Shown: one piece after another, positions 15,657-34,037 of the stretch
How the letters are laid out: each line of letters opens with the position of its first letter
Numbering within the stretch: the stretch's first letter is position 1
The notes under the pieces: generated by a model
What the model was told of the DNA's origin: nothing
Database searches by the model: none
Seen by the model: the letters and a program-made list of their open reading frames with translations, nothing else
Made by a program: the position numbers and the translations under genes
Source of the DNA: an uncultured Candidatus Saccharibacteria bacterium
GTDB taxonomy: Bacteria > Patescibacteriota > Minisyncoccia > Minisyncoccales > Minisyncoccaceae
Direction: 5' to 3'
Length of the DNA stretch: 34,037 nucleotides
NCBI GenBank assembly: GCA_964547725.1
Contig: CAZJOO010000001.1
Location: forward strand, 1,535 to 35,571

Positions 15657-16548
15657 TATTTTACTATTATCAATACTCTTAATTATTATATTTTTAGGAA
15701 GTTTTTGTTTTTTAAAAACTGAAACTTTTTCCAAAGACGACGTTTTCTCTTTCATAGACGAAAGTGCTAAAATATTTAAACCTTACTTAATTAAAACTAC
15801 CGCTCCAGATATTCAAGCCAATATTGCTTCTTCTGTTTTGCTTAACGAAGATAAGAAAATTATTCTTTACGAAAAAAACATAGAAGAAAAAACTGCCATT
15901 GCTTCACTTACAAAATTAATGACTGCTGTTGTTGTTATGGATAATTATCCTCTAGACTCTAAAATTATAGTTGACGAAGAAATGCTTACTGCTTGGGGAA
16001 CGGCAGGAGGGCTAATATTAAATGAGCATGTTACCATAGAAGATCTTTTATACATCTTATTAATAGAATCCAGTAATGACGCCGCCGAATGCTTAGCCTC
16101 AAAATTAAACCGAAATAATTTTATAATCTTAATGAATGAAAAAGCTAAAAAGCTAAAAATGAGAAGTACTCATTTTGTTAATCCTAGTGGTCTAGATGAA
16201 GACGATGGAACTTACAACACATCGTCAGCAAAGGATTTAACTGTTCTAGTTTCAGAAATAATTAAAAACTATCCTACAATAAAGGATATTTTATCAAAAA
16301 CAGAATATACGATTATTAGTGAAGAAGGCATTAGACACAAACTTTCAACCACAAACGCTCTCCTTAAAGAAATTCCTTATGAAACTTGGGGGAAAACCGG
16401 ATATACAGAAATTGCAAATGGGTGCTTGATTCTAATGACAAAAAATTCCAATAATGATACAATTATAAATATTATAATAAACTCCAATGATAGGTTCGGA
16501 GAAATGAAAACTCTAACAAATTGGACCGTAACATCTTTTTCATACTAA
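15646..16548 (+). CDS. D-alanyl-D-alanine carboxypeptidase (peptidase S11, PBP5-like)
   Basis: 300 aa. N-terminal anchor, SxxK 'ASLTK', SxN 'SSND' and KTG 'GKTGYT'. Confidence 0.8.
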   Translation: MKNNILLLSILLIIIFLGSFCFLKTETFSKDDVFSFIDESAKIFKPYLIKTTAPDIQANIASSVLLNEDKKIILYEKNIEEKTAIASLTKLMTAVVVMDNYPLDSKIIVDEEMLTAWGTAGGLILNEHVTIEDLLYILLIESSNDAAECLASKLNRNNFIILMNEKAKKLKMRSTHFVNPSGLDEDDGTYNTSSAKDLTVLVSEIIKNYPTIKDILSKTEYTIISEEGIRHKLSTTNALLKEIPYETWGKTGYTEIANGCLILMTKNSNNDTIINIIINSNDRFGEMKTLTNWTVTSFSY

Positions 16549-17634: not shown

Positions 17635-18974
17635 GAAAAAAACATCCTTGTTTTAGATATAAGGAATATAAGTATGATTTTAAAAATGGAGATTTAAATA
17701 TTTCTTTTAATTTTTCGATTGAACCAAACATTGAATTTCATCCTAATTTAAGAATTAAAAATGTTTCTGGAAAAAATATAGATTTAGAAATTCTTGAAAA
17801 TTTAATTTTTAACTTAGGAATGATTGAGCTTGTGAGTTATTATAAAGCAACTTGTTCTCCTCAAATTATTATCGAATGCGGCAAGCTAAACCAAAAACAA
17901 AAAAACTTTTGGGAAAAACTTTACTTTAATGGGCTTGGAGAATTCTTTTTCCAAAATAAAATAGATTTTACAACAAAAAATTTTTTAAAAATTGAATGTA
18001 TTTCAAATAAAGAATTTAAAAAGAAGAAAATTAAAGCCTCGGACAAAATACTTCTTCCTATTGGAGGAGGAAAAGATTCTATCGTCTCTTTAAATCTTCT
18101 TCTAAAAGAAAATATTTACTGTTTTGGGCTAAATAAGACAAAAGAAATTGAGCAAACAATCGGAGAGAACAAACATATTTACGCAGAAAGAGAGATAGAT
18201 AAAAATCTCCTCAGGCTCAATAGGGAAGGCTATTATAACGGACACACTCCTTTTTCTGCATATTTAGCTTTCTTAACAACACTAACTGCTTATCTTATTG
18301 ATGCAAAATACATTGCTTTGTCTAATGAAAGAAGTGCTAACGAAGAGACTACAAAATACTTTGGTAGAAAAATAAATCACCAATATTCAAAAACTTTTGA
18401 ATTTGAAAATGATTTTCGAAAATATTCAAAAGAATTTTTAATCGAAGGTATAGAATATTTTAGCTTTTTAAGACCTTTGTATGAAATCCAAATTGCAGAG
18501 ATATTTTCCAGATTTACAAAATATCACTCTATTTTTTTAAGCTGTAATGAGGCTAATAAAACCTGTTCTGGAACAAAAGAAAAAAGTTTAAAATGGTGCG
18601 GCAAATGCCCTAAATGCCTATTTATTTTTTCAATCCTATATCCTTTTTTAAAAGAAGAAGAACTTCTAAATATATTTGGAAGAAATCTATTTGAGGATAA
18701 AAATCTAAAAAGAGAAATGCTCCAACTGATTGGCAAAGAAAAAACAAAACCTTTCGAGTGTATCGGAACTACCAAAGAATCGCTATTAGCTTTTTATTTA
18801 AGTTTTAAAAAGGCAGAAGAAAAAAGATATTACCTGTTAGATTATTTAAATAAAAACAATTATTTTAAAAATATAAGAACAAAACATATTTTAAATGATT
18901 TCAACAAAAAAAATAACCTTCCAACAAAATTTAAAAAAATATTAAAAAATGAAATTGAAAGAACTAAAAGATAA
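17625..18974 (+). CDS. PP-loop (QueC-like) ATP-pyrophosphatase-family protein embedded in the dcw cluster; candidate MurL-type UDP-MurNAc-L-Ala-L-Glu epimerase
   Basis: 449 aa counted from the ATG at 17625, which forms an ATGGACTTAA overlap with the mraY stop. It carries the PP-loop-like 'LLPIGGGKDSIVSL' and the cysteine cluster 'WCGKCPKC'. It lies between mraY and murD and overlaps both. That it is a CDS is solid; the function is inferred. Confidence 0.5.
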   Translation: MDLRKKHPCFRYKEYKYDFKNGDLNISFNFSIEPNIEFHPNLRIKNVSGKNIDLEILENLIFNLGMIELVSYYKATCSPQIIIECGKLNQKQKNFWEKLYFNGLGEFFFQNKIDFTTKNFLKIECISNKEFKKKKIKASDKILLPIGGGKDSIVSLNLLLKENIYCFGLNKTKEIEQTIGENKHIYAEREIDKNLLRLNREGYYNGHTPFSAYLAFLTTLTAYLIDAKYIALSNERSANEETTKYFGRKINHQYSKTFEFENDFRKYSKEFLIEGIEYFSFLRPLYEIQIAEIFSRFTKYHSIFLSCNEANKTCSGTKEKSLKWCGKCPKCLFIFSILYPFLKEEELLNIFGRNLFEDKNLKREMLQLIGKEKTKPFECIGTTKESLLAFYLSFKKAEEKRYYLLDYLNKNNYFKNIRTKHILNDFNKKNNLPTKFKKILKNEIERTKR

Positions 18975-24187: not shown

Positions 24188-24262
24188 TATATAGCTTTTT
24201 TATTTCGAATTGTCAAATAATCCCCTATTTTTGTTGACACTACCCTTTTTTTGTTTTATGCT
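24188..24262. promoter_or_regulatory. Back-to-back divergent sigma70-like promoters
   Basis: Minus strand: TTGACA (24216-24211), 17 nt, TATATA (24193-24188). Plus strand: TTGACA (24234-24239), 17 nt, TATGCT (24257-24262). The two -35 boxes are 17 nt apart. Confidence 0.4.
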
Positions 24263-24371: not shown

Positions 24372-25154
24372 ATGGATGCAATAATTATTTCGCACAGTCG
24401 AATTGATTCAGCTTCCGGAAAAGTAAGTGAAGTTTGGTCCTCAATTGTTGAAGGAGCGATAGAATTCGCCCTTGAACACAAGAAGGAAATAGCTGTTCTA
24501 GCCCCAACCAAGTCATATAATGACATTGAGGAATATTATTCCTTGGTTCGGAAAGCAACAAAGCTAACCAAAAAAATCATTCTTCCTTTTTCAAAAGGAA
24601 GTCCAGAATTTGTTGAGATGTTGAACGATTTTAAGGGTGAAATCGTATTCGTAAATACGCCACCACCTAAGGAGTGGAAAGAAAAACTCACTAAAGAAAT
24701 TCCCTATGTTGGACTCGATGAGTATTTAATAGGACTCACTGCAGCCGAAACTCTTCTTGGTTTTAAAAACCACTATCGAAAAGTCCTCGTATTGAGACAT
24801 GAAAAATCACACGAAGGCCACAATCTTCGAATCGAGGGAATTAAATCTTCCGGACTTGAAGTCGTGGAATTATTCATTGATCCCGAAAAAGGAAAATGTG
24901 TTATTCCACCCAAACTAAGACACCTTTCGGTCATAACCTTGGGTATAAGAGGAACAGAAGTAGCTTTAAGAAGCAAGTCAAAAACTATTGTTGCTATTGA
25001 TAGTAACGAAAAAATTGAAACTGCTCTCAAGGAAGGCAAAATTCTTGCCATACTTCTCCAAGACCCAAAATCGCAAGGAAAACTAGCGGCAGAAAAACTC
25101 TTTTCAGGAGATAAAAAAGATTATTTTATGAGACCACAAATCTTATACGGATAA
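24372..25154 (+). CDS. Cytoplasmic periplasmic-binding-protein type I (RbsB/LacI effector-domain-like) protein
   Basis: 260 aa with no signal peptide. The pattern 'IVFVNTPPP...YVGLDEYLIGLTAAETLL...KVLVLRHEKSHEGHNLRIEGI...IVAIDSNEKIETALKEGKILAILLQDPKSQGKLAAEKL' follows the ribose-binding-protein/LacI sugar-binding fold. It aligns end to end with the C-terminal ~245 aa of the ORF at 32112-33971. An AGAGG Shine-Dalgarno sequence lies 8 nt upstream. Confidence 0.6.
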   Translation: MDAIIISHSRIDSASGKVSEVWSSIVEGAIEFALEHKKEIAVLAPTKSYNDIEEYYSLVRKATKLTKKIILPFSKGSPEFVEMLNDFKGEIVFVNTPPPKEWKEKLTKEIPYVGLDEYLIGLTAAETLLGFKNHYRKVLVLRHEKSHEGHNLRIEGIKSSGLEVVELFIDPEKGKCVIPPKLRHLSVITLGIRGTEVALRSKSKTIVAIDSNEKIETALKEGKILAILLQDPKSQGKLAAEKLFSGDKKDYFMRPQILYG

Positions 25155-25167
25155 TCTCTTTTTTTTT
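25118..25167 (+). terminator. Possible terminator (weak stem, strong T-run)
   Basis: agattat (25118-25124) / ataatct (25151-25157) inverted repeat with a large loop, followed by nine T (25159-25167). Confidence 0.3.
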
Positions 25168-25221
25168 AAATAAATTATTTAAGAAATTTCCTATTTAAAA
25201 AAAATATGCTATATTAATTAT

Positions 25222-25875
25222 ATGAAAATAGACTTACATTGCCACACAAAATATTCAAAGGATGCGATGTCTTCCTTGGACGAAATATTTTATCAAGCAC
25301 AAAAAAGGGGCTTAGATGGAATCGCTATTACTGACCATGAAAACACAAAGGGTTGGAATGATGCCATAATTGCAGCAAAAAAATACAACATGCAAGTTAT
25401 TCTGGGAGAGGAAATAAAATCTAAAAATGGTGATATTTTAGGGCTTTTTCTAAATAAAGAAATAAATATGAAAGGAGAAAATCCTGAAAAAATCATTAAT
25501 GAAATTCACGCCCAAAATGGAATCGCAATCATCCCCCACCCTTTTGACTTTAACAATCCTTTTAAAGATGTAGAAAAATATTTAAGTCTTGTTGATGGAA
25601 TAGAAATATTTAACGCTCGAAGAATTTTTAGTAAAGATAATGATAAGGCAAAAAAACTATCAGAGAAATATCCTCACTTAAATATAACCGCAGGAAGCGA
25701 TAATCATACCCATAAGGCTATTGGTTATGCTTACGTAGAATCGCAAGCAAACAATTTAGAAGATTTTAAAAAAGATTTATTAAATAAGAACGTAAGATGG
25801 TTTGGTAAAAAAGCACCGCCATTATATCTCCTAACTCCTTCTTTAAAGAAAATAAAAAATGCTATCTTTAGATAG
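25222..25875 (+). CDS. PHP-domain metal-dependent phosphoesterase
   Basis: 217 aa with 'IDLHCHTKYS', 'IAITDHEN', 'GEEI', 'IIPHPFD' and 'AGSDNHTH', the histidine/aspartate motif series of the PHP family. Confidence 0.8.
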   Translation: MKIDLHCHTKYSKDAMSSLDEIFYQAQKRGLDGIAITDHENTKGWNDAIIAAKKYNMQVILGEEIKSKNGDILGLFLNKEINMKGENPEKIINEIHAQNGIAIIPHPFDFNNPFKDVEKYLSLVDGIEIFNARRIFSKDNDKAKKLSEKYPHLNITAGSDNHTHKAIGYAYVESQANNLEDFKKDLLNKNVRWFGKKAPPLYLLTPSLKKIKNAIFR

Positions 25876-25885
25876 CATTTCTTAT
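25854..25885. terminator. Hairpin between the convergent PHP and CDP-alcohol transferase genes
   Basis: Perfect inverted repeat tgctatct (25860-25867) / agatagca (25870-25877), preceded by an A-run and followed by tttcttatt. It spans the PHP stop codon. Confidence 0.5.
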
Positions 25886-25894
25886 TATCCTCTC

Positions 25895-26506
25895 TTATTT
25901 AATATCTTTTTTATTTAAATTAATTGCTGAAAAAAATCTTTGCAATGCTGTGAAATTAGAAAGTACAGCGATAACAATTAAAATAATTGTTGCAATGTAT
26001 GCTTGAGATAAAGTCAATAAAATAAATATTATAAAAATTAAAATGATTCGTTCTCCTCTAGACATTAATCCTCCCTTTAATTCCTGATTAACTAGTTCTT
26101 TTTCTTTTGCTGCAGCCTTGGCATAAGTAGTTACAATCGAACCAAATATTGCTAAGAAAACCCAAGCATGTGCAGGAATTAAAATCTCTGGCAAAGCTAC
26201 AAAAAGAAGACCAAAAAGCATTATTCCTTCTACATATCTATCAACAACAGTGTCTATATATGCTCCTGTTTTAGAAGACATGTTTTTTGCTCTCGCGACA
26301 GAACCATCAACAAAATCTAGAATACCGGCGAAAAAAAACATTACAAAAGCAGGTCCGAAACTAAGAGTGACTGTAAAGTATAATCCTGCTAAGGCGAAAA
26401 CTACGCTTAAAGCTGTCCATTGATTAGGTGTAATTGGCAACTTTCCTAAAGTTCTACCAATAAACCTTTCCTCTGATTTAAACCACTCTCTTTTTAGATC
26501 TAACAT
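25895..26506 (-). CDS. CDP-alcohol phosphatidyltransferase family protein; from context, a candidate (archaetidyl/phosphatidyl)inositol-phosphate synthase or a DIPP-synthase-like enzyme
   Basis: 203-aa polytopic protein. It has the complete family motif D-x2-DG-x2-AR-x8-G-x3-D-x3-D in 'DFVDGSVARAKNMSSKTGAYIDTVVD'. It is the last gene of a minus-strand run that contains a MIPS gene. Confidence 0.8.
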   Translation of the reverse strand: MLDLKREWFKSEERFIGRTLGKLPITPNQWTALSVVFALAGLYFTVTLSFGPAFVMFFFAGILDFVDGSVARAKNMSSKTGAYIDTVVDRYVEGIMLFGLLFVALPEILIPAHAWVFLAIFGSIVTTYAKAAAKEKELVNQELKGGLMSRGERIILIFIIFILLTLSQAYIATIILIVIAVLSNFTALQRFFSAINLNKKDIK

Positions 26507-26510
26507 AAAT

Positions 26511-26822
26511 TTATTTTTTTAATTTTTCTAATAAATCTTCTGTGTATGATATCATTTTTTGAAGTTCTTCTTTTCCCTTCTCTGTTGTCCTATAGGCTTT
26601 CTTGCTTTGGAATCTTTCTTTTTTAATATAACCTTCTTGCATTAGAGTATAAAAAACTTTTTGCTTTTGTAAAAAACTAGGCAAAAAATCAAACTTCTCT
26701 AAAATTTTCGCATTAAGAGAATCTTTAACAATTTCCTGATCTTTTCCTAAGAAAAGAATATAAACCCAAAGATTTCTTTCTTTGGTAAAATCTTTGAATC
26801 TTTTAAGTGGAGTTCTTGACAT
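26511..26822 (-). CDS. PadR-like winged-helix transcriptional regulator (short form)
   Basis: 103 aa. 'NLWVYILFL...' plus 'FYTLMQEGYIKKE...AYRTTEKGKEEL' follows the PadR wHTH pattern. It is a paralog of the ORF at 29339-29638. Confidence 0.65.
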   Translation of the reverse strand: MSRTPLKRFKDFTKERNLWVYILFLGKDQEIVKDSLNAKILEKFDFLPSFLQKQKVFYTLMQEGYIKKERFQSKKAYRTTEKGKEELQKMISYTEDLLEKLKK

Positions 26823-26842
26823 AATATTTAAAATTATATTAA

Positions 26843-27955
26843 TTATCTTTCTCTTTTATTTAAAATAAATTCTTCTACCATGTCTCTAGCTTTATCATCT
26901 GTAATTTGTTCCATTGGATGTTTCATGAAATAAGCTGATGGTGATAAAAGTACTCCTGTTGTTCCCCTATCTAAAGCTAATTTCATCATTCTAATAGCAT
27001 CGATGATAACTCCTGCTGAGTTTGGAGAATCTTCAACAGACAATTTAAGCTCAATTGATACTGGAACGTTACCAAACTTTCTTCCCTCCATTCTTAAGAA
27101 ACAAATCTTGTTATCTTTTAAAAATGGAATATAATCTGATGGTCCAATGTGCAAATTATTGTAATCAAGCCTTTGATTTAACTCTGACTCTACCGCTTCA
27201 GTCTTAGAAAGCTTTTTAGATTTTAATCTCTTTCTTTCAAGCATGTTTAAGAAATCGGTATTTCCCCCAAAATTTAATTGGTATGACTTATCAATAATAA
27301 CTCCTCTTTGAGAGAACAAATGAGTTAAAGTTCTGTGAGTAATTGTTGCTCCAACCTGAGCCTTTACATCGTCTCCCAAACAAGGAAGTCCTGCAGCTTC
27401 AAATTTAGCAGCCCAATCTTTGTCTGAACAAATAAACACTGGCATTCCATTAATAAATCCTATGCCGGCATCAATACAAGCTTGAGCATAAAACTCAGTT
27501 GCTTTTTGAGAACCTACTGGCATGTAGTTAACTAACATTTGCGCTCCAGATTCTTTTAAAACCTTAACTACATCAACGGGCTTTTCATCAGAAACAACGA
27601 ATCTTTCGTCTTCTGGATATTCAGCCATATGTTCAGCAACACCATCTAAAACTGGTCCCATTTGTACCTTTACTCCAGACTTAGGAATATTTCCACAGAA
27701 CACAATGGTATTGTTTGGTTTTTCGAAAATAGCTTCGGTAAAATCCTTTCCTATTTTTCTTTTATCTATATCAAAAACGGCAACAACTTCTATGTCGGAA
27801 ATTTTGTAATCCCCAATTATATTGTGCATTAGTCCTGGAACTAATTCGTCATTAGTGCTGACGTTTTTATAATACTCTAATCCTTGGATAAGTGAACTGG
27901 CACAGTTACCTAATCCAGCGATAGCAATCTTAATTTTTTTATTATTTCCTTCCAT
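26843..27955 (-). CDS. myo-Inositol-1-phosphate synthase (short archaeal/bacterial type), copy 1
   Basis: 370 aa. Rossmann motif 'KIAIAGLGNCASSLIQG', plus 'GLPCLGDDVKAQVGATI', 'SYQLNFGGNTDF' and 'DSPNSAGVIIDAIR'. Confidence 0.9.
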   Translation of the reverse strand: MEGNNKKIKIAIAGLGNCASSLIQGLEYYKNVSTNDELVPGLMHNIIGDYKISDIEVVAVFDIDKRKIGKDFTEAIFEKPNNTIVFCGNIPKSGVKVQMGPVLDGVAEHMAEYPEDERFVVSDEKPVDVVKVLKESGAQMLVNYMPVGSQKATEFYAQACIDAGIGFINGMPVFICSDKDWAAKFEAAGLPCLGDDVKAQVGATITHRTLTHLFSQRGVIIDKSYQLNFGGNTDFLNMLERKRLKSKKLSKTEAVESELNQRLDYNNLHIGPSDYIPFLKDNKICFLRMEGRKFGNVPVSIELKLSVEDSPNSAGVIIDAIRMMKLALDRGTTGVLLSPSAYFMKHPMEQITDDKARDMVEEFILNKRER

Positions 27956-27998
27956 TTTTTTATATTAAATTAATTAATCTTAATATCTTGTTATTGTT

Positions 27999-28026
27999 AT
28001 TTTACACCGGTAAAATAGTTTGTCAA
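27999..28026 (-). promoter_or_regulatory. Internal promoter for MIPS copy 1, with an overlapping palindrome
   Basis: Minus strand: TTGACA (28026-28021), 16 nt, TAAAAT (28004-27999), starting directly after the MFS stop codon. The inverted repeat TTTTAC-N4-GTAAAA (28000-28015) covers the -10 box and the spacer. Confidence 0.45.
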
Positions 28027-28028
28027 TA

Positions 28029-29210
28029 TTACCTGTCTTCCTCATTATTTACTAAGTTAAATACATTAAAAATATTATCCTTAAATATCATCACAAACAT
28101 TCCAATTAATGCTAAAACAAAACACATAATAAATGGAGCATTAATGCTTCCAAAATCAATTAGCAATCCAGCAATCAAGGGCCCAATAACTCTTGCTACG
28201 TATTGAAAAGTGTCACTGATAGAAATTCCCGTAGCCCTAATTTCCTCTGCAACATTAGTGGATATAAAAGCTTTAGTAATGTTTAAACCTCCTGCCCTTC
28301 CTATTGTGAACAACCCCATTAGTAGAATAAAAACAAATATATTTTTTGTATATATAAAGAATATGGAAGAAATAGCAATTAATAACGAAGTAATTATTAA
28401 TGATTTTTTGTGCCCCATCCCATCCATAACTTTTCCTAAGCCTAGTAATCCAACAATACTAACGATGGATCCAAAACCAATAATAATACCAACTGTTGCT
28501 ATGTCGAAATTAACAGCTATCAGATACAGAGGAACAGCTAAGCTAATAACTGATTCAAAAAATCCTGTTAAAAAACCACCGACTCCTAAATAAAACAAGA
28601 AGTCCCATTTTTTAGAACCTAGGTCATTAAAAAGCTTTTTAACGCTAGGCTTCTTTTTGTCTTGTACCTTAACAACGTTTTTATTTTTAAGAAAATAAGA
28701 AAAGATTAATCCTATAACTCCAAGTATCGCCCAAACATAAAAAGCCATCTCCATTCCACCGCTTCTTAAAACTAACATTCCTCCTATGATTGGTCCTATA
28801 AAAGCACCTATTTGATAAAAACTTTCTAGTTTAAATAAAGCTTTTGTTTTTTCTTTATGTAAAATAGTTACAATGCTACTAATAGAGGAATAATAAAAAT
28901 TACTCAATATTCCTATTACAAAATACATTAAAGCAAAAAAAGAAATAGAGTCGGATATTGTGAATAGTAAAGCCACCAAAGGCAATGCAAAAAAAACATA
29001 AAATAATGTTTTTCCTTTTCCGAGTGCATCAGAAACCCATCCACAAGGCAATGCCAAAAATTTAGCACCCGCATAAAGAGAATAGATTATACTTATCTGA
29101 GAAGCGCTTGCAACTCCAGCAAAAAAAGCAGGAAAAACCTTTGAAGTAATATTAAATCCAGTTGACCAGAAAAATTGCAATAAGTAAGGTATTTCTTTAT
29201 ATAGTTTCAT
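28029..29210 (-). CDS. Major facilitator superfamily transporter
   Basis: 393 aa with about 12 hydrophobic segments and an MFS loop-2/3-like motif, 'GWVSDALGKGKT'. Confidence 0.8.
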   Translation of the reverse strand: MKLYKEIPYLLQFFWSTGFNITSKVFPAFFAGVASASQISIIYSLYAGAKFLALPCGWVSDALGKGKTLFYVFFALPLVALLFTISDSISFFALMYFVIGILSNFYYSSISSIVTILHKEKTKALFKLESFYQIGAFIGPIIGGMLVLRSGGMEMAFYVWAILGVIGLIFSYFLKNKNVVKVQDKKKPSVKKLFNDLGSKKWDFLFYLGVGGFLTGFFESVISLAVPLYLIAVNFDIATVGIIIGFGSIVSIVGLLGLGKVMDGMGHKKSLIITSLLIAISSIFFIYTKNIFVFILLMGLFTIGRAGGLNITKAFISTNVAEEIRATGISISDTFQYVARVIGPLIAGLLIDFGSINAPFIMCFVLALIGMFVMIFKDNIFNVFNLVNNEEDR

Positions 29211-29227
29211 CTCTTAAATAATAACAC

Positions 29228-29256
29228 ATTTTATTTTGTTGTTCAAATATGTTCAA
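29228..29256 (-). promoter_or_regulatory. Promoter of the MFS-MIPS-PadR-transferase operon, containing a tandem TTGAACA repeat
   Basis: Minus strand: TTGAAC (29256-29251), 17 nt, TAAAAT (29233-29228). The ATG lies about 18 nt downstream. TTGAACA occurs twice, 10 bp apart (plus strand TGTTCAA at 29240-29246 and 29250-29256): once as the -35 box and once in the spacer. Confidence 0.5.
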
Positions 29257-29338
29257 CTTTTAATTCTTCGCTAATAGTGTTACTATTTTAGTAGTACTTC
29301 TTATTTACTTATTTCAAAATATTAATTATCATTAAAGT

Positions 29339-29638
29339 ATGAATCCTTTTCTAAGACTAAAAAAATACAACACGAAAGGAAACCTATGGGTATATATTCT
29401 AACCCTACTAAAAGACAAGCCTAATTATGGCTGGGACTTCCCTTCTGATATAGAAAAAAGGTTTGGCTTTAGGCCTGGAAAAATAACTCCATACAGAGTT
29501 CTTTACGTTCTTGAGATAGAAGGACTTGTTAGCAGTGAGCAATTAGGACAAAGAAGGGTCTATTCTATTACTAAAAAAGGACTAAAAGAGCTTGAAAAAG
29601 TTAAAGATTTCTATAATAATATTATACGTGTCCTATGA
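29339..29638 (+). CDS. PadR-like winged-helix transcriptional regulator (short form)
   Basis: 99 aa with 'NLWVYILTLLKDKPNYGWDF', 'PYRVLYVLEIEGLV' and 'RRVYSITKKGLKEL'. It is divergent from the MFS operon. Confidence 0.7.
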   Translation: MNPFLRLKKYNTKGNLWVYILTLLKDKPNYGWDFPSDIEKRFGFRPGKITPYRVLYVLEIEGLVSSEQLGQRRVYSITKKGLKELEKVKDFYNNIIRVL

Positions 29639-30063
29639 AAGAAAAAAAAGAAACAGAAATTCAAGAAGTAATAAATCATTTTTTCTACACCAAAGGATAC
29701 ACACTAGAACAAGTAAAGGAAGATTCTAAAAAAAGAAAAATTATTTATTCTAGATTCACTAGACCTGCTAAAGAATTAATTGAACTTGCTGGCTCTAAAG
29801 AAGCGGCCAAAAAAGCTATTAGCATAGTTTCTGATTGGGCAAAATCAAGAAATCTTGATTATGCTATTGAAACTGTTTTTAAAAAGTGGTTAGAATTAGA
29901 TAGTCTTAAGCCAAAAGAAGTTGTTAAAAAACCTTTTTACGAAGATCAACCAATGGTTTGGTCTCAAATGAAAAAGAAGTGGTTTGTTATCAATGACCAA
30001 GGAGAATGGCTTGAATTTGCCGGAGACGAAAAAAAAGATATCGTCTGGAAGATAAAAAAATAA
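29635..30063 (+). CDS. Hypothetical protein, translationally coupled to PadR
   Basis: 142-aa ORF with an ATGA overlap onto the PadR stop. It is lysine-rich and soluble. No family recognised. Confidence 0.5.
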   Translation: MKEKKETEIQEVINHFFYTKGYTLEQVKEDSKKRKIIYSRFTRPAKELIELAGSKEAAKKAISIVSDWAKSRNLDYAIETVFKKWLELDSLKPKEVVKKPFYEDQPMVWSQMKKKWFVINDQGEWLEFAGDEKKDIVWKIKK

Positions 30064-30076
30064 AATCAATAAAAAT

Positions 30077-30643
30077 ATGTTATCATACTCAGAACTTATA
30101 AAAGGAAAAGTAATAATTGTTAATGAACAACCTTACGAAATCGTAGAGGCTCAATCTGTGTTTAAAGGTAGAGGACATTCCTACCTTCAAACAAAGCTTA
30201 AGAATCTAGCAACTGGAAGCGTTATTACAAAAACAATTCAACCAAGAGATAGCTTTGAAGAAGCTGATATAGAAAAAAAGGAAGCTAAATTTATCTATAA
30301 CAATAAAGGAAAACTTGTTTTTTCAGAAGTTGATAATCCTTCAAATAGATTCGAATTAACTGAAGAACAAATCGGAGAAGAAGCAAAATTCTTGAACACT
30401 AACGGAATGGTAGAAACTCTCCTTTTTGGCGATAAAATAATCAACGTTAAACTTCCTATTAAAGTACAATTAAAAGTAATAGAAGTTACTCCAGGAGTTA
30501 AAGGCGATAGAGCCGCTTCGGGTAATAAAGCTATTACTCTTGAAAATGGGACTATTATGAACGCTCCCCTCTTTATTAATAAAGATGATATTATTGAAAT
30601 TAATACAGAAAGAGGAGAATACGTTAGAAGAACAAATGAGTAA
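30077..30643 (+). CDS. efp: Elongation factor P
   Basis: 188 aa with EF-P domain I-III architecture. The tip loop 'VFKGRGHSYLQTKLKNLATG' carries Arg at position 32. Confidence 0.9.
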   Translation: MLSYSELIKGKVIIVNEQPYEIVEAQSVFKGRGHSYLQTKLKNLATGSVITKTIQPRDSFEEADIEKKEAKFIYNNKGKLVFSEVDNPSNRFELTEEQIGEEAKFLNTNGMVETLLFGDKIINVKLPIKVQLKVIEVTPGVKGDRAASGNKAITLENGTIMNAPLFINKDDIIEINTERGEYVRRTNE

Positions 30644-32024
30644 TCAAACTTGGCCAAAATATTATAGCAATCAATTAATTATAAATGAGAGCGAAAACTC
30701 AAGTATTTCTATTGTTACAGGTTGGACAAAAAAAGAAGATATTTTTAAAGAACTTTCTCCTGCCTCAAAAGAAAAAACTTTGATTGTTGGCCAACTATAT
30801 TCTAAAGAAGGAATAAATTTTATCATTAGGAATATATTTCTAAATCCTAAAATTAATTTTTTAATTATCACTGGAAAAGATTTATCCGGAAGCGTAAAAG
30901 AATTTAAAAGCTTTTTAGCTGGAGATAAAAAAGAATATATCCACGAAGAAATACCTGAAGAAAAAGTAAACGAATTTGTAAATTATTTTAAAGAACATTC
31001 TCTTTTTGTCGAAGCTTCGGAAATTAACGAAGCCCTAAGCAATATAGACTTAACATCTCTACCTAAAACCTGGACTAATGAGCCGCTTAATTTTGAGGAT
31101 CATTTAGCTAAAGGAGTAAATACTTTTCCTTCTGAAAAAGTTGGTTTTAGAATTGAAGGAGAAAAAGTTTCTGATGTTTGGCTTAAGGTTCTAGATAGAA
31201 TCTTCAAATTCGGTTTTGAAAAATTAAGTTCTTATGGAGAGAAGCAAAGAGAGTTAATTAATATAATGACAGTTATTAGCAATGACGACCCTGATAATCC
31301 ATATCTTCCTTCCTACCTCTATTTCAACAAAGATGACTTATTAAACTATTACCCCCAAGTGATGACAGACTGTGTTTTTGAAGGTGTAGAATACACTTAT
31401 GGAAGTAGATTAAGAAAACACAACGGAATAAATCAAATAGAAGAAATAATTAATGAACTTAAAAAAGAAAATTATTCTAGAAGGGCAATTGCTTTTACTT
31501 GGAATGTTGAAAAAGATTGCGGAAACGCAAAAGCTCCTTGTCTTGATTTAGTTCAAACCCTAGTCCAAAAAGATACCCTCTATTTAACCGCCTATTTTCG
31601 CAGTAATGATATGTTTAGAGCCTGGCCTCAAAATGCTTACGGACTCTTAAAAATTCAAAAAGAAATAGCCGAAGCGTTAAGCTTTAAAATTGGTAAGTTG
31701 ATTGTCGTTTCTTGTTCTGCTCATATTTACGAACGTGATTTTCTTGAAGCGCAAAAAATGATTGGAAAGAACAAACCAAAACTAGAATGTCAAATAGACC
31801 CAAGAGGAAATTTTGTTATTGAAGTTAATAATAATGAAATGATTGTAAAACATTTTGACGCCGAAGGAACTTTTTTGCAAGAATTTAAAGGAAGTAGTGC
31901 TGAAGAAATTAGAAATCAAATCAATACCTTTATAACAGACATCACTCACGCAATATATCTAGGAACAGAATTGCATAAAGCAGAGCTTGCTTTAAAAAAC
32001 AAAACTCCATATATTCAAGGATAA
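30636..32024 (+). CDS. Thymidylate synthase (ThyA family) with an N-terminal extension of about 170 aa
   Basis: 462 aa counted from the ATG at 30636, which forms an ATGAGTAA overlap with the efp stop. ThyA core: 'RRAIAFTWN', the catalytic Cys in 'AKAPCLDL', and 'YFRSNDMFRAWPQNAYG'. The N-terminal part 'WPKYYSN...SISIVTGW...GINFIIRNIFLNPKINFLIITGKDLSG' resembles MtrA/DUF4346-type domains; that match is from my recall only. Confidence 0.75.
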   Translation: MSNQTWPKYYSNQLIINESENSSISIVTGWTKKEDIFKELSPASKEKTLIVGQLYSKEGINFIIRNIFLNPKINFLIITGKDLSGSVKEFKSFLAGDKKEYIHEEIPEEKVNEFVNYFKEHSLFVEASEINEALSNIDLTSLPKTWTNEPLNFEDHLAKGVNTFPSEKVGFRIEGEKVSDVWLKVLDRIFKFGFEKLSSYGEKQRELINIMTVISNDDPDNPYLPSYLYFNKDDLLNYYPQVMTDCVFEGVEYTYGSRLRKHNGINQIEEIINELKKENYSRRAIAFTWNVEKDCGNAKAPCLDLVQTLVQKDTLYLTAYFRSNDMFRAWPQNAYGLLKIQKEIAEALSFKIGKLIVVSCSAHIYERDFLEAQKMIGKNKPKLECQIDPRGNFVIEVNNNEMIVKHFDAEGTFLQEFKGSSAEEIRNQINTFITDITHAIYLGTELHKAELALKNKTPYIQG

Positions 32025-32029
32025 TACCA

Positions 32030-32058
32030 TTGACATTTTAATCTATTTATTCTATAAT
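32030..32058 (+). promoter_or_regulatory. Consensus sigma70-type promoter of MIPS copy 2
   Basis: TTGACA (32030-32035), a spacer of exactly 17 nt, then TATAAT (32053-32058). A GGAG Shine-Dalgarno sequence sits at 32100-32103 and the ATG at 32112. Confidence 0.65.
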
Positions 32059-32063
32059 TAAGT

Positions 32064-32081
32064 CATGAACTTTTGTTCATG
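32064..32081 (+). promoter_or_regulatory. Perfect palindrome at the predicted transcription start (an operator or a 5' hairpin)
   Basis: CATGAAC (32064-32070), tttt, GTTCATG (32075-32081). It begins 6 nt after the -10 hexamer. Confidence 0.5.
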
Positions 32082-32111
32082 GTAGCACATTGAAATTTTG
32101 GAGTTTCTAAA

Positions 32112-33971
32112 ATGTCACAAAAAATTAACACCGGAAAAGAATGTACCGAAAACACGATCAAAATCGCAATTGCAGGAATTGGTAACTGTGCAAGTGCCTT
32201 AATTCAAGGTCTAACATATTACCGAAAAATTAAATCTGGCTTTATACCAGGATTAATGCATCCTACTATTTGTGGTTACCTTGTCTCTAATATTCAAATT
32301 GTTGCAGCAATCGATATCGACAAAAGAAAAGTTGGAAAAGATGTCTCGTTAGCAATTTTCGCCAAACCAAATAACACTACCAGATTCTGTAAAAAAATGC
32401 CTAAAACAGGCGTTGTTGTGCAAATGGGGCCAGTGCTTGATGGTGTATCCGAACTAATGAGAACCTATCCAAAAGATAGGACCTTTTTACCATCTAACGA
32501 AAAACCAGTCGATGTTGTAAACCTGCTCAAAGAAACAGGAGCACAAATATTAATCAACTACATGCCAGTCGGCTCAAAAAAAGCAACCGCATTTTATGCT
32601 CAAGCAGCGTTGGATGCTAATGTGGCTTTCATCAATGCCATGCCAGAATTTATTTGTTCCGACGAAACTTGGGCACAGAAATTCGAAGACGCTGGAATCC
32701 CTTGTTTAGGAGATGATGTAAAATCACAGTTGGGAGCAACTATCATTCACAGAGCGTTAGCTCATTTATTCTCTCAAAGAGGAATATCGTGTAAAAATAG
32801 TTACCAATTAAATGTTGGTGGAAACACTGACTTTGCCAATATGAAAGATCCACTGAGACTTAGTTCGAAAAAACTTTCTAAAACAGAGTCTGTCGAGTCT
32901 CAGTTATTAGAGAGACTCAATTACGACGATCTTCATGTCGGCCCCGCTGACTACATACCTTTCTTGGGGGATGAAAAAGAAGCATTTATTAGTATGCTTG
33001 GAACTGGTTTTGGAGAAAATCAAATCAAAATTTTTACCAGGTTGCAAGTAACCGATTCACCAAATTCTGCTGGTGTCATTATCGACGCCATTAGATTGGT
33101 TAAGGTTGCTCTCGATCGAAAAATAGGAGGACCACTCCTTGCATGTTCAGCCTTCTTAATGAAGCATCCACTCATTCAAATGACTGATGATGAAGCTTGT
33201 GAAGGAGTAGAAAAATTCATTCGCGGAGAACATAAATGGATCACCGTTTTTCCATCAAGAACAAGCGACCTTTCTCAGTCAGGCGAATTTTACTCAGAAA
33301 TCTTTACAGAAATCTGCAGAAAATTAGAGTACTTAGCTGAGAAAAATGATGTAACGTTTTGGAATAATTCCGTGTCGGAAGAGTACTGTAACGAAGATGA
33401 ATACCTTTCAAAATTAGAAGAGGTTATTTCCAGCAACGAGAATAAAGAAGAAAACACTTTATTTGTTTCATTCTGTTACATTAATAGAATGAAAGAGATG
33501 GAAGAAATTCTTAAAAAATTCTCTGGAAAAATAGTTGCCGTAAACTCTCCCTCTCCGGAAAATATCAAGTTACCAATCCTTACATATCTGGGACCAGACG
33601 ATGTAAAGATTGGAGAATTGCTTGCTATTGAGGCCTTAAAACATAAGAAAGCCTCCTCCAAAACATATATCTTAGAACACAAGGAAAATTATTATCCATT
33701 TGTTCTGAGAGAAAAAGGCATTAAAAGCCTTGTTCCCGAAGCCATCGTCGTTTCTTTATTCGAAGGAATTCCAGAGATAAGCAAGGAAGACGTTGTTATC
33801 AGTTTCGGAAATAGAAGTACTGAAGCCCTAATCGATGCAAACATCAAAGCAATAATTATTGCAATTGATGAAAACAAAAGAATCAAAAAAGAGACTAATG
33901 TTATTTGCTTAAATCAAGAAGTTTCACAGTACGTAAACAAAATAGGAAGTATGCAAGCTGCAACTTCCTAA
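32112..33971 (+). CDS. myo-Inositol-1-phosphate synthase copy 2, fused to a C-terminal RbsB/LacI-like (PBP type I) domain
   Basis: 619 aa. Residues ~1-372 align along their whole length with copy 1 and keep all the MIPS motifs ('KIAIAGIGNCASALIQG', 'SYQLNVGGNTDF', 'DSPNSAGVIIDAIR'). Residues ~375-619 align with the 260-aa ORF at 24372-25154 ('IVAVNSPSPEN...YLGPDDVKIGELLAIEAL...YILEHKENYYPFVLREKGI...IIIAIDENKRIKKE'). Confidence 0.85.
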   Translation: MSQKINTGKECTENTIKIAIAGIGNCASALIQGLTYYRKIKSGFIPGLMHPTICGYLVSNIQIVAAIDIDKRKVGKDVSLAIFAKPNNTTRFCKKMPKTGVVVQMGPVLDGVSELMRTYPKDRTFLPSNEKPVDVVNLLKETGAQILINYMPVGSKKATAFYAQAALDANVAFINAMPEFICSDETWAQKFEDAGIPCLGDDVKSQLGATIIHRALAHLFSQRGISCKNSYQLNVGGNTDFANMKDPLRLSSKKLSKTESVESQLLERLNYDDLHVGPADYIPFLGDEKEAFISMLGTGFGENQIKIFTRLQVTDSPNSAGVIIDAIRLVKVALDRKIGGPLLACSAFLMKHPLIQMTDDEACEGVEKFIRGEHKWITVFPSRTSDLSQSGEFYSEIFTEICRKLEYLAEKNDVTFWNNSVSEEYCNEDEYLSKLEEVISSNENKEENTLFVSFCYINRMKEMEEILKKFSGKIVAVNSPSPENIKLPILTYLGPDDVKIGELLAIEALKHKKASSKTYILEHKENYYPFVLREKGIKSLVPEAIVVSLFEGIPEISKEDVVISFGNRSTEALIDANIKAIIIAIDENKRIKKETNVICLNQEVSQYVNKIGSMQAATS

Positions 33972-33979
33972 TTTTTTTA
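33945..33979 (+). terminator. Intrinsic terminator overlapping the end of MIPS copy 2
   Basis: ggaagt-a-tgca / tgca-acttcc forms a 10-bp stem with one bulge and a 3-nt loop (33945-33968), followed by taattttttt. Confidence 0.65.
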
Positions 33980-33995
33980 TAGAAATAATACTTTG

Positions 33996-34037
33996 TGCCC
34001 CCAACAGGGCTCGAACCTGTGACCGTCAACTTAAAAG
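33996..34037 (-). tRNA. tRNA-Lys (anticodon UUU), 3' portion only; truncated by the window end
   Basis: The reverse complement reads CTTTTAA (anticodon loop, UUU), GTTGA, CGGTC (variable loop), ACAGG-TTCGAGC-CCTGT (T arm), TGGGGGC (acceptor 3' strand) and A (discriminator). No CCA is encoded. Confidence 0.75.

Follow-up and report, generated by a model that had tools for sequence, protein, structure and literature searches.

The two-step route that leads through phosphatidyl- or archaetidyl-inositol phosphate (PIP or AIP) is established. A 2022 review still listed the phosphatase of this route as unidentified (PMC9385802); in Bacteroides, the phosphatase step is carried out by a PgpA-like enzyme (PMC9246714). 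For PgsA1 of Mycobacterium tuberculosis (Mtb), the inositol-phosphate residues shown or proposed are R94, S132, Y133, K135, R152, R155, and R195 (PMC6506517). CPR bacteria are generally described as being without lipid synthesis (PMC12281837), and the searchable papers report neither an inositol lipid nor a lipid analysis for any member of the Paceibacteria. Likewise, no description was found in the searchable literature of the probable inositol-lipid cassette presented here, which lies within 9.6 kb of a DNA stretch of 34,037 nucleotides (in the following: the window). The host is a small-genome CPR (Paceibacteria) bacterium with an archaeal-type gene set, which most likely serves to build an inositol head group and to join it to a membrane lipid. 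We consider it fairly probable that the region represents a conserved, repressor-controlled inositol-phospholipid operon accompanied by a variable accessory set. Gene identities were assigned by means of ORF calls and profile searches with Pfam and NCBIfam, and every gene listed in a preceding sequence-only reading was recovered at the same coordinates. For comparison we used 80 related loci (64 bacterial and 16 archaeal), which comprise 1.195 Mb in all.

In these loci, the conserved core consists of a gene for a PadR-family regulator (PadR99), which is divergent from the gene order MIPS, PadR103, transferase, usually followed by a convergent PHP gene. The core was found across the Paceibacteria and, lacking PadR103, also in DPANN archaea. 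The first gene of the core operon, MIPS1 (26843-27955, minus strand, 370 aa; PF01658, 119 bits), is by sequence a homolog of the enzyme converting glucose-6-phosphate to myo-inositol-1-phosphate; its closest solved structure is Ino1 from M. tuberculosis (1GR0, 417 bits), and it scores 461 bits with NCBIfam TIGR03450, which is below the cut-off of 638. MIPS adjoins the transferase gene in 54 of the 64 bacterial and 11 of the 16 archaeal loci. PadR99 (PadR99-like in archaea) is divergent to MIPS in 53 and 10 of these loci, respectively, and PadR103 is located between MIPS and transferase in 44 of the bacterial loci; it is restricted to CPR and occurs in none of the 16 archaeal loci. A survey of the neighbourhood had been set beforehand as a test, and the neighbourhood turned out to be strongly conserved among relatives. 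The cassette composed of PadR, operator, MIPS, transferase and often PHP is common to Paceibacteria and DPANN archaea.

The CDP-alcohol phosphatidyltransferase (25895-26506, minus strand; PF01066, 65 bits) is a polytopic membrane protein of 203 residues. Its motif D64-x2-D67-G68-x2-A71-R72-x8-G81-x3-D85-x3-D89 is complete, as read directly from the translation. Among the NCBIfam models, AIP synthase scores highest with 131 bits, which does not reach its cut-off of 180, followed by the BT_1523-type PIP synthase (PIPS, 91 bits), PIPS (82 bits), di-myo-inositol-phosphate (DIPP) synthase (73 bits), and PgsA and PssA (about 27 bits each); this order of models is the same for nine CPR and DPANN homologs. 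The identities PgsA, PssA and DIP synthase were rejected. A comparison of the family profile with solved structures gave 64.5 bits for AF2299, 56.7 bits for Mtb PgsA1 and 24 bits for PgsA (7DRJ). R137 is the only inositol-phosphate pocket residue of Mtb PgsA1 that is not kept; the Mtb PgsA1 residues listed above are aligned, in the same order, to R90, T127, Y128, K130, R150, R153 and R190 of the transferase, each of which is kept in 27 or 28 of 28 homologs. Model scores, structural matches and pocket residues thus support the assignment of the core of MIPS and CDP-alcohol transferase to the branch that uses inositol phosphate. That the protein is an ordinary PgsA or PssA, producing phosphatidylglycerol phosphate or phosphatidylserine next to MIPS by coincidence, would agree with the label "phosphatidylglycerophosphate synthase" given by JGI to many homologs and with the fact that PgsA, too, binds a phosphorylated alcohol. 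The differences in model and structure scores speak against this explanation, as does the operon shared with MIPS in 65 of 80 loci from two domains of life; we regard it as scarcely credible. Since the transferase belongs to the archaeal type, the cassette has probably been exchanged between Paceibacteria and DPANN archaea.

According to family placement and pocket residues, the transferase would use a CDP-activated lipid, either CDP-diacylglycerol or CDP-archaeol, to form phosphatidyl- or archaetidyl-inositol phosphate from inositol-1-phosphate. A phosphoesterase, here most likely the adjacent PHP protein, may then strip the phosphate from the head group to yield the inositol lipid, as gene linkage suggests. 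The pathway had been described as self-contained, which is not borne out: No CDP-diacylglycerol synthase (CdsA) or CDP-archaeol synthase was detected in the window or in the 1.2 Mb of related loci. The missing CdsA gene nearby would fit an alternative in which the genes yield inositol compounds that are free or soluble, and no lipid. The myo-inositol formed by MIPS and a phosphatase (PHP, or a HAD protein in relatives) would then go into a solute, a thiol or a glycoconjugate; the MFS transporter would carry it across the membrane, the PBP-like proteins would sense it, and the transferase would act on some other acceptor or donor that is not a lipid. In line with such a function, the cluster often contains HAD phosphatases of the hexitol-phosphate/beta-PGM type, and the accessory set couples MIPS with an MFS transporter and a protein resembling a sugar sensor. 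However, the transferase is polytopic, combines a complete CDP-alcohol motif with the inositol-phosphate pocket of PIP synthases, and shows the tightest linkage to MIPS of all partners, sharing its operon in both domains; we therefore judge a soluble product to be improbable. Its di-myo-inositol-phosphate version, which the sequence-only reading had left as an option, is unlikely because a cytidylyltransferase domain or gene is missing and the DIPP synthase score is far below the respective cut-off of 580 bits.

For the phosphatase step of the favoured lipid route, the candidate is the PHP-family metal-dependent phosphoesterase (25222-25875, plus strand, 217 aa; Pfam PHP 57 bits, PHP_C 30 bits). 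Its role in the expected final phosphatase step is suggested by gene linkage only, and relatives possess HAD proteins at this place. In approximately half of the bacterial loci, one to five HADs of the beta-PGM/hexitol-phosphatase type are located between transferase and PHP, and these could perform the step instead. As none of them is encoded in the window, PHP is the only phosphoesterase of the cluster here, which argues for its involvement. A PHP gene is present in 47 of 64 bacterial and 5 of 16 archaeal loci. It lies at most 4 kb downstream of the transferase gene in 31 of 45 bacterial and 4 of 14 archaeal loci, and in three archaeal loci it is the immediate neighbour of the transferase gene, despite a sequence identity of only about 50% between the transferases. 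These numbers have to be weighed against the possibility that the core is interpreted correctly and PHP is merely an adjacent housekeeping phosphoesterase for nucleotides or RNA (of the pAp phosphatase or RNase AM type), with dephosphorylation left to another enzyme such as the HAD proteins of relatives. The closest characterised relatives are indeed nucleotide phosphoesterases; the closest named ones are 3',5'-nucleoside bisphosphate phosphatase, RNase RNM and the CehA/McbA metallohydrolases, the similarity lying mainly in the N-terminal motif, and the closest solved structure is the PHP phosphoesterase 3E0F. Moreover, PHP is convergent with the transferase and not co-transcribed, and the 4 kb downstream of the transferase gene lack it in 14 of 45 bacterial and 10 of 14 archaeal loci; in some of the 14 bacterial exceptions, it is found upstream or slightly farther off. 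We assign this possibility a considerable chance, while holding it to be the less probable one. The 19-bp gap between the two convergent genes contains a two-way terminator-like hairpin (25851-25886) with a stem of 16 pairs on the minus strand and one of 10 pairs on the plus strand; both stems run into a T-rich tail.

The assumption that the module is under transcriptional control is supported by a conserved palindromic operator, which overlaps the MIPS1 promoter and lies beside a conserved PadR gene. The 16-bp palindrome TTTTACACCGGTAAAA (TTTTAC-N4-GTAAAA; 28000-28015) has no second exact copy in the window; it overlaps the spacer and the -10 box of a promoter TTGACA-16-TAAAAT (27999-28026, minus strand), which matches 11 of 12 consensus positions and is the second best of the region. 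In the related loci, 50 exact sites occur in 1.195 Mb, compared to 0.25 expected, and 45 of these precede a short MIPS gene by no more than 120 bp; among the five without an adjacent MIPS, four are upstream of PadR99. If one mismatch is allowed, the operator precedes short MIPS in 44 of 47 bacterial and 10 of 12 archaeal cases. The overlap with TTGACA-16-TAAAAT recurs in most bacterial loci, and in several archaeal loci the operator is placed after a BRE/TATA-like element. MIPS1, PadR103 and the transferase would thus be transcribed from this sigma-70-type promoter, and a PadR dimer bound to the palindrome is predicted to shut it. PadR99 (29339-29638, plus strand, 99 aa; PF03551, 39 bits, cut-off 27) is the best candidate repressor, because its paralog type is also conserved in archaea; from position and co-conservation, we infer that it binds at the palindrome. 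PadR103 (26511-26822, minus strand; 18 bits for PadR, below the cut-off), a short winged-helix protein encoded within the operon, is a paralog of PadR99 (32% identity, E = 4e-17; both contain NLWVYIL). The two PadR genes are not matched one to each MIPS copy: Both belong to the core with the short MIPS, even in genomes without a long MIPS.

The long MIPS (32112-33971, plus strand, 619 aa) is set apart from the core by three further genes of the same 9.6 kb, which encode a 142-aa protein (29635-30063) that is highly conserved but of unknown family, EF-P (30077-30643) and a thymidylate-synthase fusion (30585-32024). It scores 405 bits with TIGR03450, again below the cut-off. Its catalytic part (residues 1-370, 32112-33221; PF01658, 103 bits) is 63% identical to MIPS1 across 363 residues. 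Of 120 columns with a conservation of 97% or more among 62 short MIPS sequences, this part retains 109; several of its departures are at 288-308. The gene has its own promoter TTGACA-17-TATAAT (32030-32058, plus strand), which matches all 12 consensus positions and is the best of the region; equivalent promoters were found upstream in L003, L012, L016, L019, L029 and L084. Right after the -10 box follows a predicted leader hairpin CATGAAC-TTTT-GTTCATG (32064-32081, plus strand), and seven loci have a hairpin in this position. Its sequence differs between them, and L003 shows a compensatory change; folding z-scores are between -0.6 and -5.1 in six loci, and L084 was judged by eye. An exact-site search of the window did not locate the operator palindrome at this promoter. 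In agreement with the suggested two differently regulated entry points, the operator is thus confined to MIPS1, and the long MIPS possesses a promoter and leader hairpin of its own. The accessory set would accordingly offer a second, operator-independent entry into inositol-phosphate synthesis. Contrary to the proposal of a single module, the accessory set, to which the long MIPS, the free PBP-like protein and the MFS transporter belong, is variable and lies outside the conserved core. The transporter (28029-29210, minus strand, 393 aa; PF07690 (MFS_1), 127 bits) is generic and DHA1-like, its closest solved structure being NorA with just 25 bits. Its gene is inserted between PadR99 and the MIPS1 operator, and it occurs in 5 of 64 bacterial loci, beside a long or a short MIPS.

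The free PBP-like gene (24372-25154, plus strand) encodes an accessory cytoplasmic protein of 260 residues with a type I PBP fold (Peripla_BP_4, 38.1 bits, cut-off 35.1), which contains neither a signal peptide nor an HTH. The AF2 model of this protein has a pLDDT of 88.4, and the top Foldseek matches are type I sugar-binding proteins and LacI cores with TM values of 0.72-0.78. In the long MIPS, residues 372-619 (33225-33971, plus strand), followed by the stop codon, had no Pfam match; this half shows homology to the free copy (E = 2e-9), which in relatives extends over the full length. The fusion is genuine and is maintained by purifying selection: In comparison with L003, dN/dS is 0.14 for the fused domain, 0.16 for the catalytic part and 0.16 for the free protein. 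It is also found in six other loci (L003, L012, L016, L019, L029 and L084), of which L084 carries two tandem copies. The sequence-only reading did not recognise this arrangement as described; with about nine clusters, sharing less than 50% identity with one another, among 1.84 billion representatives, it is in fact rare, and no description was found in the searchable literature. One might suspect that the PBP-like domains are decaying remnants without ligand sensing and that the fusion arose by chance when a stop codon was lost. In L002, a metagenome contig that is 99.8% identical, codon 422 of the long MIPS reads TAG where the window has TCG, which places a stop inside the fused domain; the relative L001 has merely a free fragment of 155 residues, and a word-index search gave very few relatives. 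Decay is nevertheless very improbable in view of the dN/dS value, the spread over divergent clusters and loci, the high-confidence fold prediction and the invariants of the family, which coincide with the canonical sugar-contact motifs of CUT2-type binding proteins. We thus prefer a functional domain, and a small sugar or polyol bound to it probably tunes the activity of the long MIPS directly. Upstream of the free gene, a promoter-like site TTGACA-17-TATGCT (24234-24262, plus strand) matches the consensus at 10 of 12 positions and is the third best of the 10-kb region.

All genes that the sequence-only reading had listed for this cluster were found where it had placed them, as judged from ORF calls and from comparisons with Pfam and NCBIfam. 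On the forward strand, the cluster begins with a free protein of 260 aa that resembles periplasmic-binding proteins (PBP; 24372-25154; Peripla_BP_4, 38.1 bits, cut-off 35.1) and a phosphoesterase of 217 aa with PHP and PHP_C domains (25222-25875; 57 and 30 bits). The reverse strand encodes a CDP-alcohol phosphatidyltransferase of 203 aa (25895-26506; PF01066, 65 bits, cut-off 22), the winged-helix protein PadR103 (26511-26822; 103 aa; PadR, 18 bits and thus under the cut-off of 27), the short MIPS enzyme MIPS1 (26843-27955; 370 aa; PF01658, 119 bits, cut-off 27), and an MFS transporter (28029-29210; 393 aa; PF07690, 127 bits), which is of a generic DHA1-like type (NorA, 25 bits). PadR99 (29339-29638; 99 aa; PF03551, 39.2 bits, gathering score 27) and the long MIPS of 619 aa (32112-33971; PF01658, 103 bits, cut-off 27) follow on the forward strand. 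Absent from the earlier list were three further forward-strand genes: a 142-aa protein without a family (29635-30063), EF-P (30077-30643), and a thymidylate synthase located between pterin-binding-type domains (30585-32024). The window has a G+C content of about 31%. Its 5' part contains peptidoglycan and cell-division genes as well as genes for aminoacyl-tRNA synthetases, ribosomal protein L9, and a type IV pilin; the host is therefore a bacterium. The nearest relatives of the transferase (93% to about 50% identity) stem from metagenome-assembled genomes named Candidatus Pacebacteria, Paceibacterota or Minisyncoccales, which assigns the window to a CPR bacterium of the Paceibacteria.

The motif D64-x2-DG-x2-AR-x8-G-x3-D85-x3-D89 is complete in the transferase and invariant in 28 of 28 homologs. 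Among the NCBIfam models, the archaetidylinositol-phosphate (AIP) synthase NF040950 scored best (131 bits, cut-off 180), followed by the BT_1523-type phosphatidylinositol-phosphate (PIP) synthase NF052561 (91 bits, cut-off 350) and the PIP synthase NF045883 (82 bits, cut-off 170). Nine CPR and DPANN homologs gave an identical ranking, with 129-148 bits for the AIP synthase model. When the family profile was compared with solved structures, AF2299 (64.5 bits) ranked before PgsA1 of M. tuberculosis (56.7 bits) and DIPPS (46 bits). An identity as PgsA or PssA can be ruled out, as the respective models reached about 27 bits each (cut-offs 109 and 107) and the PgsA structure 24 bits. A role in the synthesis of di-myo-inositol-phosphate-phosphate (DIPP) was likewise dismissed: the DIPP synthase model gave 73 bits at a cut-off of 580, with the transferase half alone being matched, the 203-aa protein has no N-terminal domain, and there is no cytidylyltransferase (IPCT); among the conserved neighbour genes of the cassette loci, no nucleotidyltransferase was found. 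In PgsA1, residues S132, R155 and R195 hold the phosphate of inositol phosphate, and R94, K135 and R152 line the pocket (PMC6506517). These positions align with T127, R153, R190, R90, K130 and R150 of the window's protein, each of which is kept in 27-28 of the 28 homologs. A neighbour-joining tree, which is a rough distance tree of a biased sample, places the CPR transferases in one clade beside the DPANN ones, both being closer to AF2299 than to PgsA1. Based on the model ranking, the structure matches, the pocket residues and the tree, we predict an AIP/PIP-synthase-like enzyme that stays short of every curated equivalog threshold; the CPR and DPANN transferases appear to constitute a branch of their own. 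A second, very divergent CDP-alcohol transferase occurs in one related locus (L010, 5865-6437, forward strand); it gave 68 bits to the window's protein and branches, in the distance tree, outside the whole group of CPR, DPANN and AF2299 sequences.

The two MIPS copies share 63% identity. Among solved structures, MIPS1 is most similar to Ino1 of M. tuberculosis (1GR0, 417 bits). Neither copy reached the NCBIfam equivalog TIGR03450 (cut-off 638), to which they aligned over the full model length with 461 and 405.5 bits; judged by these scores, their homology is clear, and both fall outside the curated equivalog of the actinobacterial type. Of the alignment positions at which short MIPS hardly vary (120 columns), 109 are retained in the long copy, and several of the changes fall at positions 288-308.

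The sequence-only reading had made its case depend on a neighbourhood that recurs in relatives, and this is clearly what the comparison of 80 loci revealed. These loci (64 bacterial, 16 archaeal) originate from a scan with one genome per species; their six-frame ORFs were searched with the window's proteins. In nearly all bacterial loci, the order is EF-P, the 142-aa gene, PadR99 divergent from MIPS, PadR103, and the transferase, and the PHP gene is usually convergent and located just 3' of the transferase. MIPS was detected in 54/64 bacterial and 11/16 archaeal loci, PadR99 in 53/64 and 10/16 (the archaeal ones being PadR99-like and divergent), and PHP in 47/64 and 5/16, with three of the archaeal PHP genes directly abutting. 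PadR103 (44/64), the 142-aa gene (48/64) and EF-P (43/64) were detected in bacterial loci and in none of the 16 archaeal ones. Among the bacterial loci are that of Minisyncoccus archaeiphilus PMX.108 (L038), which is in culture, and that of Ca. Microsyncoccus archaeolyticus (L023). Complete genomes with the cassette exist, for example NZ_AP038758.1 and OZ246399.1. The archaeal loci, some of which lie on contigs of 0.5-1.1 Mb, are labelled DPANN (Iainarchaeum, Aenigmatarchaeota) or "uncultured archaeon"; their transferases share 46-51% identity with the one in the window. When the genes on either side of the cassette in the Iainarchaeum locus L066 were compared with Pfam, no archaeal marker genes turned up, so that the archaeal label rests on record titles, large contigs, and BRE/TATA-like promoters. 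Three loci (L022, L024, L044) are titled "Candidatus Pacearchaeota archaeon". All of them contain PadR103 and a CPR-clade transferase, L022 and L044 additionally the bacterial block of EF-P, 142-aa gene and PadR99; their labels look like a mix-up of Pacebacteria and Pacearchaeota.

The intergenic regions between PadR99 and MIPS have a palindrome of 16 bp in common, TTTTAC-N4-GTAAAA. In the 1,195,178 bp of the loci, 50 exact copies were found, compared to 0.25 expected from shuffles, and 45 of these lie at most 120 bp upstream of a short MIPS gene; of the remaining five, four precede a PadR99 gene without an adjacent MIPS gene, and the fifth (L059) is beside no tracked gene. Allowing for one mismatch at most, the palindrome is present upstream of short MIPS in 44 of 47 bacterial and 10 of 12 archaeal cases. 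In bacterial loci, it lies within a TTGACA-16-TAAAAT promoter, of which it occupies the spacer and the -10 box. Several archaeal loci have a BRE/TATA-like element about 25 nt ahead of the palindrome, for example GCGAAAGCTTTATATATA. An element of the form GCGAAAG(C/T)TTTA(T/A)A... precedes the palindrome in the PadR-MIPS intergenic regions of L047, L060, L061, L068 and L069; L060 and L069 are labelled Chloroflexi, and are probably mis-binned because of their grouping with Iainarchaeum and their archaeal-type promoter. The window contains one exact palindrome at 28000-28015, 45 bp upstream of MIPS1 and within the region's second-best promoter match (28026-27999, minus strand); here, the MFS gene is inserted between PadR99 and the MIPS1 promoter. 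A strong hairpin at 25851-25886 ends both convergent units. The simplest reading of this arrangement is that a PadR-type repressor blocks the operon of MIPS1, PadR103 and transferase at the candidate operator. PadR99 is the better candidate for this repressor, since this paralog is also present in archaea. PadR103 can be counted as a PadR-family protein solely by virtue of its paralogy with PadR99 (32% identity, E=4e-17). In the literature searched, no account of this operator sequence or of its link to inositol genes was found.

Control of the long MIPS seems to follow a different scheme. Its own promoter (32030-32058) matches the consensus at 12 of 12 positions and does not contain the palindrome; with up to two mismatches allowed, no second palindrome was found in the window ahead of the genes for the long MIPS, the free PBP-like protein or PHP. 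A few bases past the -10 box, a hairpin of 6-13 pairs (32064-32081 in the window) recurs in L003, L012, L016, L019, L029 and L084 with differing sequences and a compensatory change in L003; it could be a 5'-terminal stem-loop of the mRNA. The separate promoter, the missing operator and the leader hairpin support the proposal of two differently regulated entry points made in the sequence-only reading. An assignment of one PadR protein to each MIPS copy was rejected, as both PadR genes are part of the core cassette.

At its C-terminus, the long MIPS has a complete PBP-like domain of 248 aa, which is homologous to the free PBP-like protein (E=2e-9). The free protein was modelled with AF2 (pLDDT 88.4); the model was compared by means of Foldseek and matched GanP, XylFII, RbsB and LacI-family cores with TM values of 0.72-0.78, i.e. 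glucose/galactose-, xylose- and ribose-binding proteins as well as LacI cores. According to this model, the free copy adopts the type I PBP fold with two Rossmann-like lobes and a hinge, and the fused copy qualifies by homology. Two familiar roles of this fold were considered. A solute-binding protein of an ABC transporter can be ruled out: strand beta-1 starts at residue 3, the family shows no hydrophobic leader and no signal peptide, and neither Pfam nor the neighbour survey revealed ABC transporter genes in the cluster. Nor is the protein a LacI-family repressor, as an HTH is missing and the free protein of 260 aa opens with the PBP core; in the fusion, the N-terminus is occupied by MIPS, again without an HTH. 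The family's invariant residues (R10, N95, Y112-x-G114, R153-x-x-G156, G191-x-R-x-T195, D210-x-N212, Q230) align with the motifs YVGxD, RxxGf, gfD and Q of CUT2-type sugar-binding proteins, which carry the ligand contacts in RbsB. Because of this correspondence, the ligand is likely a sugar, a polyol or a sugar phosphate.

The same fusion of MIPS and PBP-like domain occurs in L003, L012, L016, L019 and L029, and in two tandem copies in L084. Word-index searches with the PBP-like domain gave only two and five relatives; the family became visible only through an exhaustive HMM search of 1.84 billion representative proteins, in which it comprises, at E<=1e-10, only 47 clusters, among them nine MIPS fusions (two of them fragmentary) and about 30 free proteins of 250-310 aa. 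An exact look-up of the 619-aa protein returned no identical protein on record. In a comparison of the window with L003, dN/dS was 0.16 both in the MIPS part of the long protein and in the free paralog, and 0.14 in the fused domain. These low values and the recurrence in other loci led us to reject an assembly artefact or a pseudogene, and argue for the fusion being a working protein. A near-identical metagenome contig (L002, JGI contig Ga0172377_10331837) matches 32763-34037 of the window with 99.84% identity and no indels. At its position 614, which corresponds to window position 33376 (codon 422), it has TAG in place of TCG, truncating the long MIPS inside the PBP-like domain; the gene caller accordingly reported two genes. 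This is a strain-level variant. Accessory genes are located between PHP and XerC in L084 and are dispersed in the window.

For the last step of the putative pathway, the PHP protein is the sole phosphoesterase of the window's cluster. Its translation contains the metal-binding His/Asp motifs HCH at the N-terminus, DHE, and SDNH near the C-terminus. Considering only loci with enough sequence, a PHP gene lies at most 4 kb downstream of the transferase in 31 of 45 bacterial and 4 of 14 archaeal loci. Roughly every second bacterial locus has, between transferase and PHP, from one to five genes for HAD hydrolases of the beta-phosphoglucomutase/hexitol-phosphatase type. This group includes the closest relatives L003, L004 and L084; the window has no HAD gene anywhere and has lost it. 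Given this partial linkage, the HAD genes of relatives, and the fact that the nearest named relatives of PHP act on nucleotides, we infer its function with caution and consider it possible, if not quite probable, that PHP is the lipid phosphatase. In the relatives' accessory region, the HAD genes map to 8770-9429 (L003), 10612-11301 (L004) and 15573-16226 (L084); at this place the window has only a spacer of 67 bp (25155-25221) between PHP and the PBP-like gene. In other Paceibacteria, up to five tandem HAD paralogs are located downstream of the transferase. With respect to the lipid donor, a comparison of E. coli CdsA with all ORFs of the window and of the loci gave no match, i.e. no CDP-diacylglycerol synthase was found in these sequences. 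This does not support the proposal of a self-contained module.

The predicted chemistry is known from the archaeal AIP route and from the PIP routes of actinobacteria and Bacteroides. The archaeal route (Morii et al., summarised in PMC9385802), whose AIP phosphatase is unidentified, also combines MIPS with a CDP-alcohol transferase of about 200 aa, the AIP synthase; the latter is the best model for the window's transferase, and DPANN homologs are 46-51% identical and have the gene order in common with it. In contrast, the host is here bacterial and has peptidoglycan genes and EF-P, the transferase remains with 131 bits below the equivalog cut-off of 180 and belongs to the separate CPR/DPANN branch, and the cassette adds a PadR repressor with a candidate operator, a PadR paralog within the operon, and a linked PHP gene. 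PgsA1 and Ino1 of actinobacteria (M. tuberculosis, 6H53 and 1GR0) resemble the window's enzymes in the two-step chemistry, the pocket residues and the closeness of MIPS1 to Ino1. They differ in that the PIP synthase model gave only 82 bits at a cut-off of 170, and in that R137 of PgsA1, which is contributed by the second protomer, is replaced by Ala. In actinobacteria, ino1 and pgsA1 are not known to form an operon like that of the window. Their ino1 is controlled by the LacI-type regulator IpsA, which responds to myo-inositol in Corynebacteria and Mycobacteria (PMC3899939). With its type I PBP-fold sensor functionally coupled to MIPS, IpsA is the closest functional analogue of the fusion; however, IpsA acts on DNA via an HTH, whereas the window's domain lacks an HTH, is fused to the enzyme or free-standing, and control at the DNA level is apparently exerted by PadR proteins. 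The cluster BT_1522-BT_1526 of Bacteroides (Heaver et al. 2022, PMC9246714) likewise groups MIPS, a PIP synthase and a dedicated phosphatase. The phosphatase is PgpA-like there, and PHP or HAD proteins are the candidates here; moreover, the window has no sphingolipid branch and another regulator, and its 91 bits are far below the cut-off of 350. As with known PadR repressors and their palindromic operators, the cassette combines a small winged-helix protein, encoded divergently from its predicted target, with an inverted repeat that overlaps the promoter; distinct are the two paralogs and a site that is kept in bacterial and archaeal promoter contexts. The features that set the cassette apart are thus the CPR host, the predicted PadR-operator pair found across domains, the PHP/HAD phosphatase candidates, and the MIPS-sensor fusion. 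Searching the literature on CPR, Patescibacteria or Parcubacteria, we found no report of MIPS, phosphatidylinositol or a MIPS fusion, and public records annotate the cassette's genes one by one.

In the mechanism we propose, relief of repression would allow MIPS1 to make inositol-1-phosphate, which the transferase would couple to a CDP-activated lipid; a phosphoesterase, in the window most likely PHP, would then release the inositol lipid. The long MIPS would provide for operator-independent synthesis, probably tuned by the fused sensor domain. A more far-reaching reading joins these elements. The whole cassette of repressor, 16-bp operator, MIPS, archaeal-type inositol-phosphate lipid synthase and PHP phosphatase would have been exchanged between DPANN archaea and Paceibacteria and would work in both domains, only the core promoter elements having been swapped around an unchanged operator. 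Bacteria incapable of lipid building would thereby attach an inositol head group to lipids they have scavenged, perhaps to those of the archaeal host in methanogen parasites like Minisyncoccus; PHP would be the long-missing PIP/AIP phosphatase, and the fusion the first MIPS under the direct control of a fused ligand-sensing domain. We regard this combination as speculative and rather unlikely to hold as a whole. According to published descriptions, CPR bacteria cannot produce lipids of their own; for the open question of how their membranes are built and tailored, a widely conserved, regulated inositol head-group cassette offers a concrete lead in Paceibacteria. Minisyncoccus archaeiphilus, the sole cultured member that parasitises an archaeon, belongs to this group. 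A 2022 review (PMC9385802) still called the phosphatase for PIP/AIP in archaea and actinobacteria unidentified, and specific candidates are the linked PHP gene and, in relatives, the HAD genes; the Bacteroides step is performed by a PgpA-like enzyme (PMC9246714). The same operator inside bacterial -35/-10 promoters and behind archaeal BRE/TATA-like elements would be a rare clean case of a repressor-operator pair surviving inter-domain transfer, and the MIPS-sensor fusion suggests that the committed step in making inositol is controlled directly by a small molecule.

Several observations concern neighbouring genes. The 142-aa protein has no match in Pfam, NCBIfam or the PDB; it is 62-92% identical across Paceibacteria, which exceeds the conservation of its neighbours, and its gene is invariably located between PadR99 and EF-P. 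An N-terminal extension of about 90 aa, which resembles a PolX-type helix-hairpin-helix domain, is present in the homologs of L036, L040 and L049. A single-sequence structure model (pLDDT 60.7) was set aside. The protein is probably a nucleic-acid-related housekeeping protein outside inositol metabolism. The 479-aa protein encoded at 30585-32024 on the forward strand has a thymidylate synthase core of the archaeal/methanogen type (TIGR03283, 170.6 bits, just short of the cut-off), an MtrA-like N-terminal region and a pterin-binding DUF4346 domain at its C-terminus; it is the second archaeal-flavoured gene in this bacterium. Since the ORF as listed reaches 59 nt into EF-P, translation probably begins at an internal Met. 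In the cell-wall cluster, an ORF of 490 aa without a Pfam family (17502-18974, forward strand) lies between an MraY-like and a Mur ligase gene and, with the start as listed, overlaps the former by about 130 nt. A scan of the window for Rfam families and tRNAs gave no match. The window is cut within a tRNA gene (33990-34037, reverse strand), of which the T-arm and the acceptor end are visible; at the matching position, L003 carries a tRNA-Lys(UUU) gene that is convergent with the long MIPS.
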